Part shown: positions 3,195-31,240 of the stretch, one piece after another
Layout: every line of letters starts with the position of its first letter
How positions within the stretch are numbered: the stretch's first letter is position 1
Virus record (IMG/VR): IMGVR_UViG_3300046003_008003
Span: 1 to 32,636 of that record
Length of the DNA stretch: 32,636 nt
Direction: 5' to 3' (one strand)
Origin: a virus
Lineage: Duplodnaviria > Caudoviricetes
Made by a program: the position numbers and the translations under genes
The notes under the pieces: generated by a model
Seen by the model: the letters and a program-made list of their open reading frames with translations, nothing else
Told to the model about the DNA's origin: nothing
The model's database searches: none

Positions 3195-3297
3195 AAAAAC
3201 CCGCCCGCGCCGGAGGGGCGAGGGCGGGTTTCGCGTCGCCTACGAGGCGTCTTCCGTAAGGAAGACAGGGTGAGGAGGAGGGTGCCTCGTCGCGACA
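3195..3297 (-). ncRNA. Putative small RNA with anti-Shine-Dalgarno (CCUCCUCC) loops
   Basis: Own promoter TTGACG-N17-TAATCT (3303-3331), stem-loop exposing CCCUCCUCCUCACCC, then an intrinsic terminator (3195-3231); no coding ORF. Confidence 0.65.
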
Positions 3298-3394
3298 CCA
3301 TTAGATTAGTCGTGGCCCGAAAAAACGTCAAGAACTATTTCCACAGGGGGTGAAAAATGTTGACTACCGTCACGCACAGGGGCAAAATACCCCC

Positions 3395-4036
3395 ATGGCA
3401 AAAATATATGTGACCCGACACGGGCAGTCGATGACGAACATCGACATCGATATTGCACGGCGAGACGCCGGGCATAAAGTCGTTCTGAACACTCGGAACA
3501 ACATCCTCACCGAGACCGGCATCGAACAGGCGATTGCTTTCGGCCGCCGCCTCAAGGAAGAAAATGTGGTGATCGACCACATCATCGCGTCCCCCTATGG
3601 GCGCACCAAGCAGACCGCCTTCACCATCGCCTCAGTTCTGGCAACGTGCGTGGACATCACCTACGAGAAAGCCTTCCAGGAAATCGAGTGGGATGTCGGC
3701 GGGGCGTTCGACCGTCTGGAGAACTACCTCCCAGACTTCGATTCCAAGACGCTGCCCTACAACGAACGCCCGATGATCGATCATCGTCGCGGCGCCATCA
3801 CTCTGGAGAGCCAGGAAGACGTCTTCAATCGCGTCGTTCCGAAACTCATCACCGTCGCCAAGCGGGCCGCCAAGAAGGACGAGAATATTCTCATCGTCAC
3901 CCACTTCTTCGTCGTGCGCGCCATCGAAGCCTTTATGGCCACCGGCCATGCTTCGCAGATGGTTGACTTCTCCCCGAAGAACCTTTGCATGAACAGCTAT
4001 GATGCTGACGATATTTTGGAAAGAATTACTGCATGA
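3395..4036 (+). CDS. Histidine phosphatase (phosphoglycerate mutase family)
   Basis: RHG motif (YVTRHGQS), SPYGRTKQTA, LIVTH; start 6 nt after TTGACT-N17-CAAAAT (leaderless). Confidence 0.88.
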   Translation: MAKIYVTRHGQSMTNIDIDIARRDAGHKVVLNTRNNILTETGIEQAIAFGRRLKEENVVIDHIIASPYGRTKQTAFTIASVLATCVDITYEKAFQEIEWDVGGAFDRLENYLPDFDSKTLPYNERPMIDHRRGAITLESQEDVFNRVVPKLITVAKRAAKKDENILIVTHFFVVRAIEAFMATGHASQMVDFSPKNLCMNSYDADDILERITA

Positions 4037-4188
4037 CCCCATCTGGTTTCAAAGTCTCCGAGGAGCATCGCCCCGGACAATTCCGCTCGTTCTACTGGGC
4101 GGCCGAACTCTCCGAGGCCGAACAACACGCCGAGTGCATCCGCGCCCTATTCCCTGACCGGAATATCGTCGTCACTCCTTCGGAATAG
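4033..4188 (+). CDS. Small hypothetical protein (51 aa)
   Basis: ATGA-coupled to the phosphatase; open frame MTPSGFKV...TPSE. Confidence 0.5.
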   Translation: MTPSGFKVSEEHRPGQFRSFYWAAELSEAEQHAECIRALFPDRNIVVTPSE

Positions 4189-4528
4189 CTTTCGTCCGTC
4201 CCCAGGTTTCGGTTTGCTGGTGGCAGTTCGGACAGAGGAATCTCACATTTTCTCGGCGATTGTCGCCGTGGATGCCGTTGATATGATCGACGTGTAGCGT
4301 GATCGGGCACCCTAGCCACGTCCCATCGTTCGGACACTTGGCACATTCATAGATAAACCCAGTTTCGATCATTCGGGCCCGGAGCCGGGCACCGTGGGCT
4401 TTCGAATTTTCGCAAAAAACTTCGTCAAGCGTCAGGGCGTTTTTGCTCGCATACGCGGCAATACTCGGGTGTTGGGCGGCGGTCTGGCCCTTGTTCCATA
4501 GCTGGCCAGTGAAATGAGACGTGTCCAC
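4172..4528 (-). CDS. HNH endonuclease, probably N-terminally truncated
   Basis: CAKC...LHVDHINGIHGDNRRENVRFLCPNCHQQT; begins abruptly at DTSHF with a GTG and no RBS. Confidence 0.7.
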   Translation of the reverse strand: MDTSHFTGQLWNKGQTAAQHPSIAAYASKNALTLDEVFCENSKAHGARLRARMIETGFIYECAKCPNDGTWLGCPITLHVDHINGIHGDNRRENVRFLCPNCHQQTETWGRTKAIPKE

Positions 4529-4529
4529 T

Positions 4530-4685
4530 TCATAGTGACGGCAGAGGGTGCGCGTAACAATAGGCGTCGGCCATCCGGCCAGCCAAAAGGGCGTGCACGT
4601 AGCTTCCTGGCGTCAGACCCCACAGAACATAGCAGATGAACGAATCCCAACAGGTCGCGTCGATCTCGAAACTCTGATCAGGCAT
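4530..4685 (-). CDS. Short hypothetical protein (51 aa), possibly truncated
   Basis: Overlaps the TyrRS stop; Y..WG..PGSY..A.L pattern. Confidence 0.5.
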   Translation of the reverse strand: MPDQSFEIDATCWDSFICYVLWGLTPGSYVHALLAGRMADAYCYAHPLPSL

Positions 4686-5946
4686 CCCATTCGACCACGA
4701 CAAAGGATTTCTTCCCCACGGCCAAAACTGCGGTTCGACCGTCTTCGCGCTTGAACGAGCCACCCATCAGGACACGGACATCATCGACCGCGTCGCCGTT
4801 GATGCGCACACCCCGGTTGGCCGCCATGCGGTCGGCGTCCTTGCGGGATTTTACCAGCCCGGTCTCGACCAGAACGTCGGCCACCGTCTTGGTCGCCATG
4901 TCGGCGATCACCACGGAGTGGACCGGGATGTTGGTATCATCGACCAGATCACCATTGAGGAACCCCTTGGCGATCTTCTCCATGGCGTGCGCGACTTCGC
5001 GACCATGCACGAAGGCAGTCACCTCGGTGGCCAGCACCGTTTTGGCGACATTGATGCCGCCGTCCATCAGATCGTCGATCATGTGGAGTTCCAGCAGGGT
5101 GAAGAGCTTGAGGAACTCCTCGACCTTCTCGTCCTCGACGTTGCGCCAGAACTGCCAGAAATCGAACGGCGCGGTCATGTCGGGGTCGAGCCAGATCGCG
5201 CCTCCCGCCGTCTTGCCCATTTTCTCGCCCGCCGTATTGGTCATCAGCGGCGTGGTGAGCCCGTAGGCCGCACGCCCGGTCTTGCGACGGATGAGATCGA
5301 CGCCATTGACGATGTTGCCCCACTGATCGGAGCCGCCGATCTGAAGGATGCATTCCGGGCCGGGCATCGCGGACGAGAATTTCTGCGTGGCCTCGTTGAG
5401 GAACAGGAAATCCCCTGCCTGCATGACCATGTAGTTGAATTCGAGGAAGGTCATCGGCTCCTGGCGGGCCAGACGGGTCTTCACCGAATCCAACGCCAGC
5501 ATCTTGTTGATGGTGAAGTGGCGGCCGAGGTCAGACAGGACGTCGAGGAAGCTCTTGTGCCGCCAGAAATCTTCGTTGTTGACCGCGTAGACATGGCCGA
5601 TCAAGCGGTCGAACACCTTCTGGATGCCGACCCGGTTGATCTCGATCTCTTCGGGGGTCAAGGTCGGGCGCAGGGCGGACTTGCCCGTTGGGTCACCGAT
5701 GCGGGTCGTCGCGCCACCGAAGACCACGATGGGGTTGTGGCCCTGCTCCTTGACGTGGTGGAGGGCCATGATCTGAATGAGGGAGCCGACGTGCAGGCTG
5801 GGAGCCGTCAGGTCAAAGCCAATGTAGACCGAGGCCGGGCCATCGGGATGGCGGCGCACGAGGCGGTCGTCGAGGGCCCACTCGTCCGTGACTTGCTTGA
5901 TGAAGCCGCGTTCGCGGAGCGTGATCATGAGGGCTGACGTGAGCAT
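4678..5946 (-). CDS. tyrS: Tyrosyl-tRNA synthetase
   Basis: YIGFDLTAPSLHVGS (HIGH), GDPTGKS, QIGGSDQWGNI, KMGKT (KMSKS), C-terminal S4-like domain; start 6 nt after TTGACG-N16-TATCGT. Confidence 0.95.
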   Translation of the reverse strand: MLTSALMITLRERGFIKQVTDEWALDDRLVRRHPDGPASVYIGFDLTAPSLHVGSLIQIMALHHVKEQGHNPIVVFGGATTRIGDPTGKSALRPTLTPEEIEINRVGIQKVFDRLIGHVYAVNNEDFWRHKSFLDVLSDLGRHFTINKMLALDSVKTRLARQEPMTFLEFNYMVMQAGDFLFLNEATQKFSSAMPGPECILQIGGSDQWGNIVNGVDLIRRKTGRAAYGLTTPLMTNTAGEKMGKTAGGAIWLDPDMTAPFDFWQFWRNVEDEKVEEFLKLFTLLELHMIDDLMDGGINVAKTVLATEVTAFVHGREVAHAMEKIAKGFLNGDLVDDTNIPVHSVVIADMATKTVADVLVETGLVKSRKDADRMAANRGVRINGDAVDDVRVLMGGSFKREDGRTAVLAVGKKSFVVVEWDA

Positions 5947-5988
5947 CCCGTCACGATAGGGCAAAGGACTTTTTCGTCAACCAAATAA

Positions 5989-19489: not shown

Positions 19490-19590
19490 GGCATTCGGTC
19501 TGTCGAGCTTAATCGCTCACCAAGGCTGGGGGCTAGTCTGGTGGTTCGGGACCCTGAAACGGAACCCCTCCCGAACCATCAGACAAACAT
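19490..19590 (+). ncRNA. Putative small RNA
   Basis: TTGACA-N16-TAGGTT promoter (19457-19484); 16-bp stem 19536-19551/19569-19584; no ORF. Confidence 0.4.
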
Positions 19591-19666
19591 TTCTTATTGA
19601 CACCAAATAAGTGGTGTGCGATAAATAGGTTCATTGGGGGCACAACGCCCTCCAGAGAAGGTTTCC

Positions 19667-19759
19667 ATGTTCGTTTCGTCGTCCTCGCATTGTTCGTCAA
19701 GTCATTCGACGCAAGTCGAAGGCGGGAACGTGTGCGTGGAACCGGTGACCGGGGGATAA
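19667..19759 (+). CDS. Putative attenuator leader peptide MFVSSSSHCSSSHSTQVEGGNVCVEPVTGG
   Basis: GAAGG RBS; 11 consecutive Ser/His/Cys codons; lies between promoter elements (TTGACA 19597, TAAATA 19622) and an intrinsic terminator upstream of the Ser/His/Cys tRNA cluster. Confidence 0.75.
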   Translation: MFVSSSSHCSSSHSTQVEGGNVCVEPVTGG

Positions 19760-19787
19760 CCCCAACCACCAAGACCAAGTGAACATA

Positions 19788-19812
19788 GGCCCCGCCGCAA
19801 GCGGGGTTTTTT
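19788..19812 (+). terminator. Intrinsic terminator (attenuator 3:4 hairpin)
   Basis: GGCCCCGC-CGCAA-GCGGGG-TTTTTT. Confidence 0.8.
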
Positions 19813-19843
19813 AATGCCCAAAATCCACAGGGAGGGTCTGAAG

Positions 19844-20083
19844 ATGCGAGTGAGTCTGCTGATTGAACTGCTTCTTCAGATGCCGAAGAACGCAGAAGTG
19901 TTCGTCAACGGTGCCGAGGTCCAGGGCGCCGAAATTACCAAGGGGCGGGTCCGCAAGGACGTCGTCTCGCCGGGGAAAACCTTCAAGGCTCTGCCGCAAG
20001 GCCGAGACGAAGCGGTTGTCCTCACCCGCCTAACCGAGTTCAGCGATGGCTCGATTGATCACACCGGGGTCTTTGTCCCCTAG
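19844..20083 (+). CDS. Hypothetical protein (79 aa), first gene after the attenuator
   Basis: GGAGG RBS; ATG at 19844. Confidence 0.7.
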   Translation: MRVSLLIELLLQMPKNAEVFVNGAEVQGAEITKGRVRKDVVSPGKTFKALPQGRDEAVVLTRLTEFSDGSIDHTGVFVP

Positions 20084-20116
20084 GAAGAGAAGGAAGACTA
20101 CCGGAGACGGTTCAGA

Positions 20117-20205
20117 GGATGGCTGGCTGAGAGGCTTAAGGCGTCCGATTCGAAATCGGGAGGGGGCAGAGATGTCCTCCATGGGTTCAAATCCCATGCC
20201 ATCCT
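20117..20205 (+). tRNA. tRNA-Ser(CGA)
   Basis: GGATGGC/GCCATCC acceptor, TCCGA-TTCGAAA-TCGGG anticodon arm, long variable arm, TTCAAAT T-loop; no CCA encoded and T at position 73. Confidence 0.8.
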
Positions 20206-20230
20206 CTGAACCGTCTCTGTCAAGATTTAT

Positions 20231-20306
20231 GGTGGCTGTAGCTCAGTGGTAGAGCGTCTGACTGTGACTCAGAAGGCCGGGGGTTCGATACCCCTCAGCC
20301 ACCCCA
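20231..20306 (+). tRNA. tRNA-His(GTG), canonical G-1:C73 type
   Basis: G-GTGGCTG...TCTGA-CTGTGAC-TCAGA...CAGCCAC-C-CCA. Confidence 0.93.
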
Positions 20307-20330
20307 AATCTTCTAGAGAGTATTGATGCT

Positions 20331-20420
20331 GGGCCGGTGGTAGAGTCAGGCTTATTGCGACGGTCTTGAAAACCGTAGAGGGTAAAACCTCCGGGGGTTC
20401 GAATCCCTCCCGGCCCGCCA
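20331..20420 (+). tRNA. tRNA-Ser(TGA)
   Basis: GGGCCGG/CCGGCCC, ACGGT-CTTGAAA-ACCGT, long variable arm, G73, CCA. Confidence 0.92.
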
Positions 20421-20450
20421 TCAATACTTTCAGATCGGAGACTAGCCTGC

Positions 20451-20537
20451 GGAGCGCGGGCAGGATGGTAATGCAGCGGTTTGCTAAACCGTAGGGGGCC
20501 GGAAGGTCCCCACAGGGTTCGACTCCCTGGCGTTCCG
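20451..20537 (+). tRNA. tRNA-Ser(GCT)
   Basis: GGAGCGC/GCGTTCC, GCGGT-TTGCTAA-ACCGT, long variable arm, G73; no CCA encoded. Confidence 0.9.
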
Positions 20538-20575
20538 CTGGCTAGTCTGTGGTCTACTGGTTGACTAAATACTGG

Positions 20576-21064
20576 ATGAAAACCAGTATTCGTAAACCAA
20601 ACTGTGAGTGTTCTACATGCGGCAAGTCGCACTATGCACGACCCGCAAAACTAGAGAGTCAGGACGGGCGAAGCTATTGTAGCAGAGCCTGCTTTGGAAA
20701 GTGGTCTAGGAAGTCAACTGTTCTTTGTGGAGTCTGCGGAAGAGACATCACGGGGAGCAATAACGCAAAAACCTGTTCGAGAGCTTGCTCAAACAAATCT
20801 CGAACGGGCGTCAAATACGGAGAAGGTAGAAAAAGTTGTAAAGTTTCAAAGGGAAATGCTGTTCGTCTTGCCTTGATTGCAGTCAAAGGTGAACCGAAGT
20901 GCGAGAGGTGCGGGTATGACAAATACCCCGACGTGGTTCAGGTCCACCACGTCATAGAGAGATGCCAAGGGGGTTCAGATGAGCCCGAGAACCTTGAGTT
21001 CCTCTGCCCCACCTGTCACAGCGAAGAGCACCACCTTAGAAGGACGGTTGGCCGAGTGGTTTAA
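20576..21064 (+). CDS. Zn-finger HNH homing endonuclease within the tRNA cluster
   Basis: YCSRAC/TCSRAC repeats, CERCG...VHHV...GGSDEPENLEFLCPTCHSEEH; TAAATA 4 nt upstream; more AT-rich than its flanks. Confidence 0.85.
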   Translation: MKTSIRKPNCECSTCGKSHYARPAKLESQDGRSYCSRACFGKWSRKSTVLCGVCGRDITGSNNAKTCSRACSNKSRTGVKYGEGRKSCKVSKGNAVRLALIAVKGEPKCERCGYDKYPDVVQVHHVIERCQGGSDEPENLEFLCPTCHSEEHHLRRTVGRVV

Positions 21065-21133
21065 GGCGCGCGCCTGGAAAGTGCGTGTGGGCAGAAATGT
21101 CCACCGAGAGTTCGAATCTCTCACCGTCCGCCA
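21042..21133 (+). tRNA. tRNA-Ser(GGA)
   Basis: GGACGGT/ACCGTCC, CGCGC-CTGGAAA-GTGCG, long variable arm, G73, CCA. Confidence 0.93.
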
Positions 21134-21144
21134 TTTACTGGTAT

Positions 21145-21220
21145 GCTGGAGTAGCTCAATCGGGAGAGCGCGGGTTTGTGGAGCCCGAGGTAGTGAGTTC
21201 GAAACTTACCTTCAGTACCA
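21145..21220 (+). tRNA. tRNA-His(GTG), alphaproteobacterial type (no G-1, G1.U72, A73)
   Basis: T-GCTGGAG...CGGGT-TTGTGGA-GCCCG...CTTCAGT-A-CCA. Confidence 0.9.
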
Positions 21221-21307
21221 GTAAAGTTTCCGAGGAGGCAGGGGTTCTGACAAAGCCTTCTCGGTAGGGATGCCAGTCGTAGCCCAAAAGGCATCCCGTG
21301 CGTTTTC

Positions 21308-21383
21308 CGCCCTGAGGTCGAAGAGTCGAGGCACTCGCCTGCAAAGCGAGACGAAGTGGGTTCGAGTCCCACCAGGGCGTCCA
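21308..21383 (+). tRNA. tRNA-Cys(GCA)
   Basis: CGCCCTG/CAGGGCG, CTCGC-CTGCAAA-GCGAG, U73, CCA; D-loop lacks the usual GG. Confidence 0.85.
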
Positions 21384-21444
21384 AAAAGAATTTCCATTTG
21401 GGTGAACCAGATAATAGGGTCTGTTCACCCCAGAGGAAGTTCCC

Positions 21445-21786
21445 ATGACGAAGACCGAAGCCGACGCCCTAGCCCGTGAGATCGCCGTGATTGAGGTTCG
21501 GCTCCGGGCCATCCAGTTCGCCGCAGGCCTGAGGGCCCGACGCGCAGGACTCGGAGAAGGGGCCTGCCGTTGGCGCGGTTGCAAGAACCGGAAGTGGTGG
21601 ATGGAAGGCTTCGACGCCGACCCAAACGCCAACCACGGGGAGGTGATGTTCGATGCGATTCCGGCCGGGGAATATCCCGAGCTTCTTGGCAGCGAAGAAC
21701 GCTTCAACGCTACCCTCAAGGAGAGGTTCGGCGCACGACAAAATGAAATCAAGACGGTCTTCGCCATCATGAAGACCGGCTGGTAA
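21445..21786 (+). CDS. Hypothetical protein
   Basis: GAGG RBS; 113 aa. Confidence 0.7.
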   Translation: MTKTEADALAREIAVIEVRLRAIQFAAGLRARRAGLGEGACRWRGCKNRKWWMEGFDADPNANHGEVMFDAIPAGEYPELLGSEERFNATLKERFGARQNEIKTVFAIMKTGW

Positions 21787-21802
21787 ACCAAAGGGGACTA
21801 CC

Positions 21803-22421
21803 ATGCTGCGAGGCACACGAATCATCACCGGCCAGGAGGCCGCCGCCTACACGAATGCAATCAATACCCTCCGGGGGTTGGTTCATTGAAGCTGGCTACG
21901 AGGAAGTAATCCTGCCTGCTCTGTGGGAGCAGCAAACCTTTATAGACAAGGCCGGACCTGAGATCGTCAATCAGATGTGGGCCTTCCAGGACAAGGGCGG
22001 ACGAGACGTCTGCCTCATCCCCGAGGTCACCGGGCTCGTCCAAGAGACGTGGCGAGACGACTGGTCGAAGACCTCCAAGAGCCGTCGCATCTTCTACGTC
22101 AGCCGTTGCTACCGCTATGAGCGTCCGCAGGCTGGCCGCTATCGGGAGTTCACCCAGTTCGGCATCGAACTCCTGGGCGAGGCCGAGAACGGGCGCGAAG
22201 AAACCATGGAACTTCTCGACCGCTGTCTCGGCAGCCTATGCGAGAATTACACCTTGAATGGCAGCGTGAAGCGTGGTCTAAGCTACTACGTCGAAGATGG
22301 CTTTGAAGCAGAGTGCAGTGCGCTCGGTGCTCAGAAGCAGATCGCGGGGGGTGGACGCTACGCCGAAGGCATCGGCTGGGCCATCGGTGTGGATAGGCTG
22401 TTGCTCGCCATGGAGAAGTAA
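21803..22421 (+). CDS. hisS: Histidyl-tRNA synthetase, catalytic domain only (about 205 aa), +1 frameshift near 21875
   Basis: MLRGTR.. N-terminus in one frame; GYEEVILP, motif 2 YRYERPQAGRYREFTQFGIE, RGLSYY, GGGRY and motif 3 GIGWAIGVDRL in the next frame. Confidence 0.82.
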
Positions 22422-26871: not shown

Positions 26872-26958
26872 CAACCATATTTACTAGACGGGGTTCTGAA
26901 AGTCAATACAGGGCGTTTTTTGGTTGACGATTTTACCCCACCGCCTATAGTGCGATGT

Positions 26959-28023
26959 ATGAAACCGCCTGTCCTCCTCGAACGCCGGAAGTTTAGCGAA
27001 GCCGTCCAGGTTCGTGATGGGCTCCGCTGTGTCTTCTGCAAACGCACCGCAGAGGAAACCCCCGAGGGCAAGCTGGACAGTCATCACATCATTGAGCGGC
27101 GACTGTTTGCGGCGCCGCACGAGTTCGGCGGCTACTTCATCGAGAACGGTGCCACGGTGTGCGAGGAGCATCACCTTCAGTGCGAGCAGACCGTGATCTC
27201 GGTCGAGGAAGTCCGCGTTGCCTGCGGCATCACGCGCATCATCGTTCCCTCCCATCTCTACGACGATCAGCAGATCGACAAATGGGGCAATCCCATCCTG
27301 GCCAACGGCACCCGCATTCGCGGTGAACTCTTCTTCGACGAGTCGGTGCAGAAAGTCCTCAAGCAGGGCGGGGTCCTCGACCTCTTCACCCACCATGTCA
27401 AATATCCTCGCACCTACCACATGCCGTGGAGCCAGAACATTCACGACGATGATCGCATCATTCCGTCGATGTCGGCCTTCGAGGGCCAGCGCGTCATCCT
27501 TACGCGCAAGATGGATGGCGAGTGCACGACCATGTATCAGGACCATTTCCACGCCCGGTCCCTCGACAGTCCCAACCACTCGTCGCGCAACTGGGTGAAG
27601 AATTTCTGGGGTCAGATTCAGGGAGACATCCCGGAGTTCTGGCGTGTCTGCGGTGAGAATCTCTACGCCGAACACAGCATCGCCTACGACGATCTGCCCA
27701 GCTACTTCATGGGCTTCTCGATGTGGAACGAGCGCAACGTCTGCCTGTCCTGGGATGAGACCATGGAGTGGTTCTCCCTGCTGGGCATCACGCCGGTTCA
27801 AGTCGTCTTCGACGGCATCTATGACGAGAAAGCCATCCGGGCGATCTGCGAAGGGATGGACTGGCAAACCGACGAGGGCTTCGTTCTCCGGCTGGCAGAC
27901 TCGTTCTCCTACGGGGAGTTCCGGCACAAGGCCGCCAAGTTCGTCCGCAAGGACCACGTCCAGACGGTCAAGCACTGGATGCACGGTCGCGAGATCATCC
28001 CGAACAAACTGGCGGCGCAATGA
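26959..28023 (+). CDS. RNA ligase with an N-terminal HNH domain
   Basis: RDGLRCVFC..DSHHII..NGATVCEEHH (HNH); KYPRTYH, KMDGE (motif I), GENLYA, EGFVLR, AKFVR; start 7 nt after TTGACG-N16-TATAGT. Confidence 0.85.
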   Translation: MKPPVLLERRKFSEAVQVRDGLRCVFCKRTAEETPEGKLDSHHIIERRLFAAPHEFGGYFIENGATVCEEHHLQCEQTVISVEEVRVACGITRIIVPSHLYDDQQIDKWGNPILANGTRIRGELFFDESVQKVLKQGGVLDLFTHHVKYPRTYHMPWSQNIHDDDRIIPSMSAFEGQRVILTRKMDGECTTMYQDHFHARSLDSPNHSSRNWVKNFWGQIQGDIPEFWRVCGENLYAEHSIAYDDLPSYFMGFSMWNERNVCLSWDETMEWFSLLGITPVQVVFDGIYDEKAIRAICEGMDWQTDEGFVLRLADSFSYGEFRHKAAKFVRKDHVQTVKHWMHGREIIPNKLAAQ

Positions 28024-30086: not shown

Positions 30087-30258
30087 AGGCGATAGCCCCC
30101 TGAATGAGAGTTGTGCAAAAGATCATCATCGAGATGATCGACAGAATGGCGGTCGAGGCCGCCCAACCGTACTTCTTCTTGCTGACGAAGAATCCGGCGA
30201 GGACGGCCTGACCCACCGAGGCAACGAACGTGGCGGCGACAACGATTTCTTGCATCAT
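30076..30258 (-). CDS. Small two-TM membrane protein
   Basis: 60 aa, two hydrophobic stretches, overlaps both neighbours. Confidence 0.65.
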   Translation of the reverse strand: MMQEIVVAATFVASVGQAVLAGFFVSKKKYGWAASTAILSIISMMIFCTTLIQGAIAYAA

Positions 30259-31169
30259 GCCATCCTCACCAGACGCCGGGCTACGGCGTCCAGTTGTTTG
30301 CGCTCGAACAGCGGGGCGGAGTTCTTCAGGCGTCCCTCGGTGAGGAACATTCCAATCGCCCGGTCGGTGGTGATCGGGGGATTGTGCTTGTCGAAGTTGG
30401 CGTCGCTGGGGTTCCAGTTCATCCGCAGCATGTAGGCCAGCACGGCTTCGGCCGAGTAGCCGTCCGCCTTGAACGACATGATGTCGGCGACGTGCGCGTT
30501 GCTGCGCTTGCTCAGCTTGGCCCGCTTACCGTCTTCGCCGATGATTTCGATCAGGCCGACGTGCGCGAACTCGATGCTGCGCGGCGGGGAAAAGACCGCG
30601 TTGCCTTCGATGGCGGCCTTGACCGCAACCTGCTTGGACGTGTTGGCGATGTGATCGACGCCACGGATGACGAGGTTCACGCCAGCGAACATATCGTCCA
30701 CGATGGAGGCGAAGTTGTAGGTCGGCCCACCGCCGTTCGCGGTCGAGCGCATCAGCACCAGCCCATCGATGAACTTGCGGTCGTGATCGTTGATCTTCAC
30801 GTCCTTGCGGCCCAGATAGTCGCGCCACGTGTCCGGCATGTTGTCGGGCAGTTCCAGCGTGATGGCGCCGTCGTCGAGACGGACTGCCTTGTTGGCGTCA
30901 ACGAGCGCGTCCGCGATGCGGCGATACTCGTCCAGCCGGTCGCTTTGGCGGAAGGTGTCGTCCGGGGTCAGGCCGAGCCAGGACAGCGCATCCATGATGG
31001 TGCCGACGTGGGCTTCATCGTTTCGGGCCACGTCGGTGTCGTCGATGCGCAGAATGAACTTGCCACCGGACGCCTTGGCGGCCAGATAGTTGAAATACGC
31101 CGTGCGGGCTGTCCCGAAGTGGAACATGCCGGTCGGCGAAGGCGCGATGCGGGTGATAAGAGGGGTCAT
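30255..31169 (-). CDS. Glutamyl-tRNA synthetase-like protein lacking the anticodon-binding domain (GluRS/GluQ-RS family)
   Basis: TRIAPSPTGMFHFG (HIGH), FILRIDDTD, TYNFASIVDD, RGVDH, KLSKR; only 304 aa. Confidence 0.85.
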   Translation of the reverse strand: MTPLITRIAPSPTGMFHFGTARTAYFNYLAAKASGGKFILRIDDTDVARNDEAHVGTIMDALSWLGLTPDDTFRQSDRLDEYRRIADALVDANKAVRLDDGAITLELPDNMPDTWRDYLGRKDVKINDHDRKFIDGLVLMRSTANGGGPTYNFASIVDDMFAGVNLVIRGVDHIANTSKQVAVKAAIEGNAVFSPPRSIEFAHVGLIEIIGEDGKRAKLSKRSNAHVADIMSFKADGYSAEAVLAYMLRMNWNPSDANFDKHNPPITTDRAIGMFLTEGRLKNSAPLFERKQLDAVARRLVRMA

Positions 31170-31240
31170 GTGTTTTTCTATACAGGACTTGTCTGAATAG
31201 TAAAGTCGTAATACCATACCGGTGTGGAAAATATGTGATC

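Follow-up and report, generated by a model that had tools for sequence, protein, structure and literature searches.

The leader and its tRNA unit

The window considered here, the whole 32,636-nucleotide (nt) stretch of the Caudoviricetes record IMGVR_UViG_3300046003_008003, contains a cluster of seven transfer RNA (tRNA) genes, four for serine, two for histidine and one for cysteine, with no other specificity. The cluster is preceded by a short open reading frame (ORF) whose control codons specify the same three amino acids and followed by a gene for a minimal histidyl-tRNA synthetase (mini-HisRS). Judged from its sequence, the leader is very probably a ribosome-read transcription attenuator that gates the phage tRNA operon by negative feedback on tRNA supply. 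An attenuator had been proposed in a preliminary description of the locus, and it is supported by the conservation of the ORF, the co-variation of its codons and a fold that depends on ribosome position. The leader region comprises the following features.

19597..19627, plus strand: predicted promoter, -35 TTGACA (19597) and TAAATA box (19622), the latter T4-late-like and doubling as -10 region
19655..19661, plus strand: leader ribosome-binding site GAGAAGG, 5 nt 5' of the ATG, read from the sequence
19667..19759, plus strand: leader ORF of 30 codons, read from the sequence as MFVSSSSHCSSSHSTQVEGGNVCVEPVTGG, with homologues in six relatives
19676..19708, plus strand: codons 4-14, the control run (8 Ser, 2 His, 1 Cys), which doubles as segment 1 of the switch
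19721..19740, plus strand: segment 2, of which 19721-19726 is the anti-terminator strand
19790..19812, plus strand: predicted intrinsic terminator (segments 3:4, six T), found with our own script

The rest of the unit, up to the HisRS gene, is as follows.

19844..20083, plus strand: 79-codon ORF of no family, with no relative outside the phage among 72 candidates
20117..20206, plus strand: tRNA-Ser(CGA), acceptor stem lengthened by a 13-bp flanking inverted repeat (ARAGORN)
20231..20306, plus strand: tRNA-His(GTG) of canonical type, G-1 and C73 (ARAGORN)
20331..20420, plus strand: tRNA-Ser(TGA) (ARAGORN)
20451..20538, plus strand: tRNA-Ser(GCT) (ARAGORN)
20566..20571, plus strand: second TAAATA box, without a -35, ahead of the HNH gene; possible bypass promoter
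20576..21064, plus strand: HNH endonuclease inserted within the tRNA cluster (Pfam HNH, 1.9e-11; PHROG 1271)
21042..21133, plus strand: tRNA-Ser(GGA) (ARAGORN)
21145..21220, plus strand: tRNA-His(GTG) of Caulobacter type, no G-1, U72, A73
21308..21383, plus strand: tRNA-Cys(GCA), found by Rfam only (48.6 bits) and missed by ARAGORN
21445..21786, plus strand: 113-codon ORF of no family

The unit thus holds seven tRNAs, an HNH gene, two orphan ORFs and one mini-HisRS, with no biosynthetic enzyme among them. Codons 4-14 are exactly the Ser, His and Cys codons listed earlier, and the GAAGG reported as ribosome-binding site lies within GAGAAGG. All 11 control codons can be read by tRNAs of the downstream cluster. 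In 30 simulated genomes of 107 kb, no run of at least 10 Ser/His/Cys codons occurred; the real contig does carry three poly-Ser runs of 7-12 on the opposite strand. Both promoter boxes first described are present, 19 nt apart; in a 17-nt register the -10 element is GATAAA instead. The contig that gives the genome context, G001, is 107 kb long, estimated to be 21% complete and identical to the window over the 3,100 bases compared; it has 35 TAAATA boxes, 34 of which lie outside ORFs of 250 or more codons. A stock scan for promoters and terminators listed neither the leader promoter nor its terminator, and a sigma-70 search, made to tell which polymerase may read the leader promoter, gave a match in one of five genomes. 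Directly 5' of the promoter lies a 16-bp hairpin (19536-19584), without a U tract on the same strand.

The tRNA set agrees with the one originally read from the sequence (Ser CGA, TGA, GCT and GGA, two His, one Cys), six genes being found by ARAGORN and tRNA-Cys by Rfam. The second tRNA-His carries the identity set of Caulobacter tRNA-His given in the available part of PMC3064791 (no G-1, U72, A73), and both tRNA-His types are clear in three of the five units checked. In five of the seven tRNA genes the acceptor stem is extended by 3-19 bp through flanking inverted repeats (20104-20217, with z -7.2, 20222-20312, 20316-20431, 20432-20555 and 21134-21225), possibly as processing or protection signals. 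Further hairpins lie between tRNA-His and tRNA-Cys (21230-21297, z -3.4) and 3' of tRNA-Cys (21388-21442).

The predicted RNA switch

The switch was computed by masking whatever RNA a ribosome would cover and then folding the transcript as far as the 5' arm of the terminator. The intrinsic terminator described before was recovered, with a stem at 19790-19806 followed by six T and a stability of about -13.4 kcal/mol. The leader fold as a whole has a z score of -3.75, and none of 200 shuffled sequences was equally stable. When no ribosome is present, the control codons of segment 1 pair with segment 2 (pairing probability P 0.89) and the terminator forms. This is the protecting 1:2 helix that had been predicted, at slightly different positions: 19682-19695 with 19726-19740, plus 19701-19703 with 19721-19723. 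The alternative GGCGGG:CCCGCC pairing was also borne out by the masking, since with a ribosome at codons 3-14 the anti-terminator 19721-19726:19791-19796 forms at P about 1. It is lost from codon 15-16 on, which coincides with the end of the control run.

The same behaviour is predicted elsewhere. The anti-terminator formed in five of five homologues tested (P 0.80-0.94) despite their different sequences, and without a ribosome helix 1:2 hides it in all five (P 0.73-0.89); only 0-4 of 100 shuffled homologous leaders switched as strongly. Of 23 matched leaders picked by hand, 18 have their predicted switch no more than three codons from the end of the run (7.2 expected), with a length-corrected r of 0.80, and ten further leaders, judged by eye, follow the same pattern. 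All 23 have a U-tract terminator 23-66 nt past the stop codon and a complementary strand just past the control run.

Conservation and co-variation of leaders and clusters

The relatives' genomes were covered in their tRNA-bearing stretches. A Ser/His/Cys/Tyr cluster is found at 4 of 23 other viral-contig HisRS loci (L002, L003, L004 and L007), each time with a homologous leader, promoter boxes (the same TTGACA/TAAATA pair) and a terminator, and two more such units (L099 and L103) occur among 99 further HisRS loci. The ORF is therefore kept in six relatives, although the C-terminal halves of the homologous leaders are not conserved. In all six, Tyr appears in leader and cluster alike; in the window it appears in neither, and there is no tRNA-Tyr in the 107 kb of G001. 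Two of these loci also carry tRNA genes with a CTA anticodon, resembling amber suppressors (L004:10400-10556 and L002:11816-11903).

Other clusters follow the same rule. Asp is present in the Gly/Glu leader and cluster of G002 and G003 and absent from their large leader; G004 and G005 have it in the large leader and its cluster; in the Gly/Glu units of G001 and G004 it is missing from leader and cluster alike. The window's own contig has two additional matched leaders, Ala/Pro and Gly/Glu. Leaders also precede other multi-tRNA clusters (Arg/Leu/Lys/Trp; Gly/Glu with or without Asp; Ala/Val/Ile/Met/Phe/Thr/Pro/Asn/Gln with or without Asp), and units with single-amino-acid leaders exist for Thr, Arg, Glu, His, Asn and Ser. 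The leaders of purine-rich sets (Arg/Leu/Lys/Trp, Asp/Glu, Asn, Gln/Ser) agree just as well with the clusters that they precede. Codon runs thus follow cluster content both between genomes and across the clusters of this genome, as the check suggested in the preliminary description had asked, and this co-variation points to ongoing selection.

Two rules were used to choose leaders. The first, blind to tRNA identity, takes the nearest promoter-like site and the first ATG ORF of 8-65 codons. Of 111 cluster starts, 35 yield an ORF by this rule, and 24 of the 35 match their own tRNA set, against 1.9 expected; the observed sum was reached in 0 of 20,000 permutations. The second is anchored on terminators and was applied to further stretches; from 27 starts it gave nine units, two of which had been seen previously, and seven of the nine matched (permutations again 0/20,000).

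The amino acids are partitioned repeatedly in G002-G005 into Ser/His/Cys/Tyr, Arg/Leu/Lys/Trp, Gly/Glu/Asp and the rest, and G007 and G009 show different partitions among their clusters. Grouping by biosynthetic family was considered for these tRNA sets and rejected, as it does not explain the splits. Outside the viral contigs, the cultured Thalassospira xianhensis MCCC 1A02616 (L185, about 3290-5810) has a Pro/His/Leu/Tyr leader with a strong terminator, nine matching tRNAs and a split mini-HisRS; L145, L146 and L149 are similar.

Direct searches returned little. A degenerate DNA pattern of the leader hit six loci among viral contigs, namely the window's contig, two known relatives and a single chance match in three copies that has no tRNA alongside. 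A blastn search of leader plus tRNAs against cultured phages gave single-tRNA matches only, none of the 95 records spanning most of the query, and Rfam gave no leader family or T-box match in the window at gathering score or at E up to 10.

A predicted +1 frameshift in the HisRS gene

The HisRS reported after the tRNA cluster is present: the 188-codon frame 21855-22421 matches Pfam HisRS at 7.7e-18. Its gene starts further upstream, at 21803, and changes frame at 21881-21889, which had previously gone unnoticed.

21803..21889, plus strand: HisRS first frame, 27 codons, with a His codon at 21884-21886 and a stop
21873..21889, plus strand: predicted +1 frameshift cassette, consisting of a G-rich Shine-Dalgarno (SD)-like run, 3 nt, GTT, the His codon and the stop
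21885..22421, plus strand: HisRS catalytic core in the +1 frame, without insertion or anticodon-binding domain and without any His residue

The junction [C/G]TT-CAY occurs at 18 of the first 25 loci and at 90 of 99 further ones, with both CAT and CAC; of the further loci without it, eight are unsplit and one is unclear. The G-rich run lies 3 nt 5' of the slippery codon in most loci and is weak as an SD-like run in L014 and L015. A sequencing error was rejected as the cause of the frame change, since contigs of runs X3 and X4 show no differing letter or gap in the cassette and the homologues share the junction. The window's core is free of His, as are those of 20 of 25 loci. Sinorhizobium phage Phosso also has the junction; its deposited HisRS annotation (L026:4045-4686) begins within the +1 frame, leaving out the conserved first one. 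In three bacterial genome bins of Rhodospirillaceae (L183, L188 and L189) a split mini-HisRS stands behind a plain His-rich leader and a terminator, with no tRNA detected at these loci.

According to the accessible part of PMC5009743, slow ('hungry') A-site codons favour +1 shifts. The shift predicted at the His codon would then act as a second gauge of His-tRNA, and phage tRNA-His and mini-HisRS may form a pair independent of the host enzyme. No HisRS frameshift was found in the literature within the reach of the search, which left most subscription papers and all supplements outside.

Source, host and other genes

The window derives from a T4-like jumbo phage, of which it covers a fragment; it carries terminase, TyrRS, GluRS, RNA ligase and HisRS-like genes. 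The nearest relatives by HisRS are mostly contigs of 400-600 kb, together with phage Phosso, and the DNA runs containing most of the window come from lake water; no RNA run was listed as containing it. The relatives and the Caulobacter-type tRNA-His suggest an alphaproteobacterial host. Contigs from four DNA runs back up the window sequence in part. In one contig, of depth 2, Ser codons 10 and 11 each differ in their third base, which was too weak to be used. Three further translation-support genes lie in the window.

4678-5964, minus strand: TyrRS
26920-28023, plus strand: RNA ligase
30255-31217, minus strand: short GluRS-like protein

Proposed mechanism and alternatives

In the absence of a ribosome, helix 1:2 would form and the terminator would follow. 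A ribosome at codons 3-14 would let 19721-19726 pair with 19791-19796 and so block the terminator, and one past codon 15 would cover segment 2, with the terminator forming again. Decoding would presumably be slow when charged Ser, His or Cys tRNA is short, be it cut, uncharged or diluted, and read-through would supply tRNAs of these three kinds and so complete a loop of negative feedback. The mini-HisRS would be produced only when ribosomes shift by +1 at a hungry His codon, and would likely charge the G-1-type tRNA-His, which a Caulobacter-type host enzyme would not prefer.

As to the trigger, we lean towards the loss of particular tRNA species, through host nucleases or toxins or through phage turnover of host tRNA. 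General tRNA supply during infection is a plausible but less probable trigger, and amino-acid starvation is improbable. A shortage of tRNA fits better than starvation because extra tRNA cannot cure a lack of amino acids and the sets cross biosynthetic families; the split into separately gated modules fits species-specific tRNA loss. A larger picture, a little short of probable, is modular tRNA surveillance by jumbo phages: split operons with codon-matched leaders would detect losses caused by anticodon nucleases or toxins and replace tRNAs on demand, with an orthogonal tRNA-His/mini-HisRS pair under a frameshift gauge.

A number of observations weigh against the attenuator. In the finished transcript at equilibrium, the terminator has P 0.28-1.0 for stalls at codons 4-14; as it remains favoured at the majority of stall positions, the switch relies on the order of folding during transcription. 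The outcome of classical attenuators is likewise set by folding order. Under a coarser whole-arm metric, which calls its switch at codon 19, the window is among the 5 misses of the 23 leaders. Eleven of the 35 ORFs picked by the first rule are unmatched, 76 of the 111 cluster starts lack a promoter plus ORF, and the rule itself was drafted after many leaders had been seen, with homologous units that are not independent. No matched leader was found in the stretches examined of Phosso or in the arrays of 40-plus tRNAs at L005, L006, L008 and L009; given these misses, the leader system is optional within this phage group. With a contig 21% complete, a tRNA-Tyr may lie elsewhere in the genome. A U-tract terminator is absent from the two other matched leaders of the window phage, and the TAAATA box at 20566 could feed the Ser(GGA), His, Cys and HisRS genes past the switch. 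Finally, the four Ser codon types do correspond to the four isoacceptors, as first pointed out, but given the codon usage of the phage, eight Ser codons would cover four classes in 41% of chance draws (P 0.41); the classes are covered in all five homologous leaders counted, which share ancestry, and this coverage was dropped as stand-alone evidence.

Among the alternatives, the one that survives best, though unlikely, is that the leader is translated and codon-matched but controls another output, such as Rho loading, precursor folding or processing, or RNA stability. Eight matched leaders, the two in this phage included, have no U tract and stand 20-103 nt 5' of the first tRNA (Gly/Glu/Asp, Ala/Pro, Glu, Thr and Arg; L031:7295-7402 and L031:19503-19616 in G001, and also L034, L037, L043, L051, L041 and L039), which shows that a different output exists in some units. 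The Gly/Glu ones share a CGCCGG:CCGGCG pairing ahead of a hairpin, the Thr and Arg ones can pair with the tRNA itself, and the long stems flanking the tRNAs of the window point to structure-dependent processing. Against this stand the U-tract terminators of the window unit and of all 23 hand-picked leaders, and the position of the complementary strand just beyond the control run.

It is less likely still that the switch is genuine in origin and bypassed in infection, with late TAAATA promoters or phage antitermination making the tRNAs constitutive. Many relatives' tRNAs are expressed from leaderless promoters, and the box at 20566 may drive the distal genes at late stages of infection; it was likely brought in by the HNH gene, and the units of L002, L004 and L007 have no such internal box. 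The preliminary description had singled out a promoter downstream of the terminator as a point that would tell against attenuation: none was found between the terminator and the four proximal tRNAs, and for the distal genes the TAAATA box at 20566 is a candidate. Co-variation, moreover, implies that selection still acts.

The codon content could also be a by-product of RNA structure or of chance, Ser, His, Cys and Tyr codons being pyrimidine-rich and segment 1 having to pair with a G-rich segment 2; the isoacceptor coverage, taken alone, would be compatible with this. It is disfavoured and very improbable, for purine-rich sets match equally and no permutation reached the observed matching in either test. 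That the ORF encodes a functional or modified peptide, such as a Ser/Cys-rich precursor resembling ribosomally synthesized and post-translationally modified peptides, is scarcely credible despite its short Ser- and Cys-rich product, since the neighbours scanned yield only HNH and HisRS and no modifying enzyme, its composition tracks tRNA content rather than chemistry, and the C-terminal halves are not conserved.

Significance

The reason why phages have tRNA genes has long been an open question. If a codon-specific feedback switch precedes them, these genes would respond to a shortage that arises only under certain conditions, and attenuation read by ribosomes would reach beyond genes of amino-acid synthesis and loading to tRNA genes. 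If surveillance of the kind outlined above exists, the leaders are a readable record of the tRNAs attacked by hosts, and they would give portable sensors for tRNA-cleaving defences. New here is also a HisRS gene predicted to require a +1 shift at a His codon. Annotation needs correction on both counts, since leaders are missing from annotations and the first frame is left out when the mini-HisRS is called, as in Phosso.

Comparison with known systems

Leader-peptide transcription attenuators are well known from thrL, the ilvGMEDA leader, trpL, hisL, pheL and leuL, some of them multivalent. The phage leader has in common with the thrL and ilv type a short ORF, a run of control codons, 1:2/2:3/3:4 helices and a U-tract terminator 20-60 nt past the stop. 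It differs from the thr, ilv, trp and his leaders in that the tRNAs themselves are gated rather than biosynthetic enzymes, in that the unit is viral, in amino-acid sets that cross biosynthetic families and in the lack of an Rfam leader match. The defining feature of amino-acid attenuators, the gating of enzymes for synthesis or loading, is not one of this unit. Leader-peptide attenuation of aminoacyl-tRNA synthetase genes is exemplified by E. coli pheST, and His leaders are predicted for Bacillus hisS* and hisZ in the available text of PMC2965389. Like these, the phage unit has a HisRS gene downstream of a His-containing leader, but it consists mostly of tRNA genes, and its synthetase is a truncated core with a frameshift gauge.

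Among tRNA arrays, the Anabaena trn operon is induced by translational stress, as far as the accessible parts of PMC8421152 and of the TrcR paper (PMC10272220) go. Both systems have spare tRNA genes and an HNH gene on a mobile replicon and are, or would be, on when translation suffers. The Anabaena operon differs in using a DNA-binding repressor that is not codon-specific, and the available text of PMC8421152 contains none of the words 'attenuat', 'leader' and 'terminator'. Phage tRNAs rescue infection from the tRNA-cleaving defences PARIS and retrons, according to the portions available of PMC11464382, PMC11555353 and PMC10264068, and replacing depleted host tRNAs is also the purpose proposed here. 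Those portions describe neither sensing nor regulation of phage tRNA genes, PMC10264068 having no occurrence of 'attenuat' or 'promoter'. The accessible text of the jumbo-phage reviews PMC13282480 and PMC7824862 treats tRNAs as counter-defence, with no occurrence of 'attenuat'. The earlier statement that no attenuators are known for phage tRNA operons agrees with our literature search, which found none for tRNA genes in a corpus with subscription papers and supplements mostly outside it.

For the HisRS gene, the closest parallel is prfB, the RF2 gene, with its autoregulatory +1 frameshift, in which an SD-like run stands 3 nt before the slippery codon and UGA occupies the A site. In the phage gene the A-site codon is CAT or CAC (His) rather than UGA, the stop comes one or a few codons further on, and the product is a mini-HisRS. 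Shared with prfB are the SD-like run 3 nt 5' of the slippery P-site codon (21873-21883), the conserved frame change and, as proposed here, a product that would relieve the very shortage that triggers the shift.

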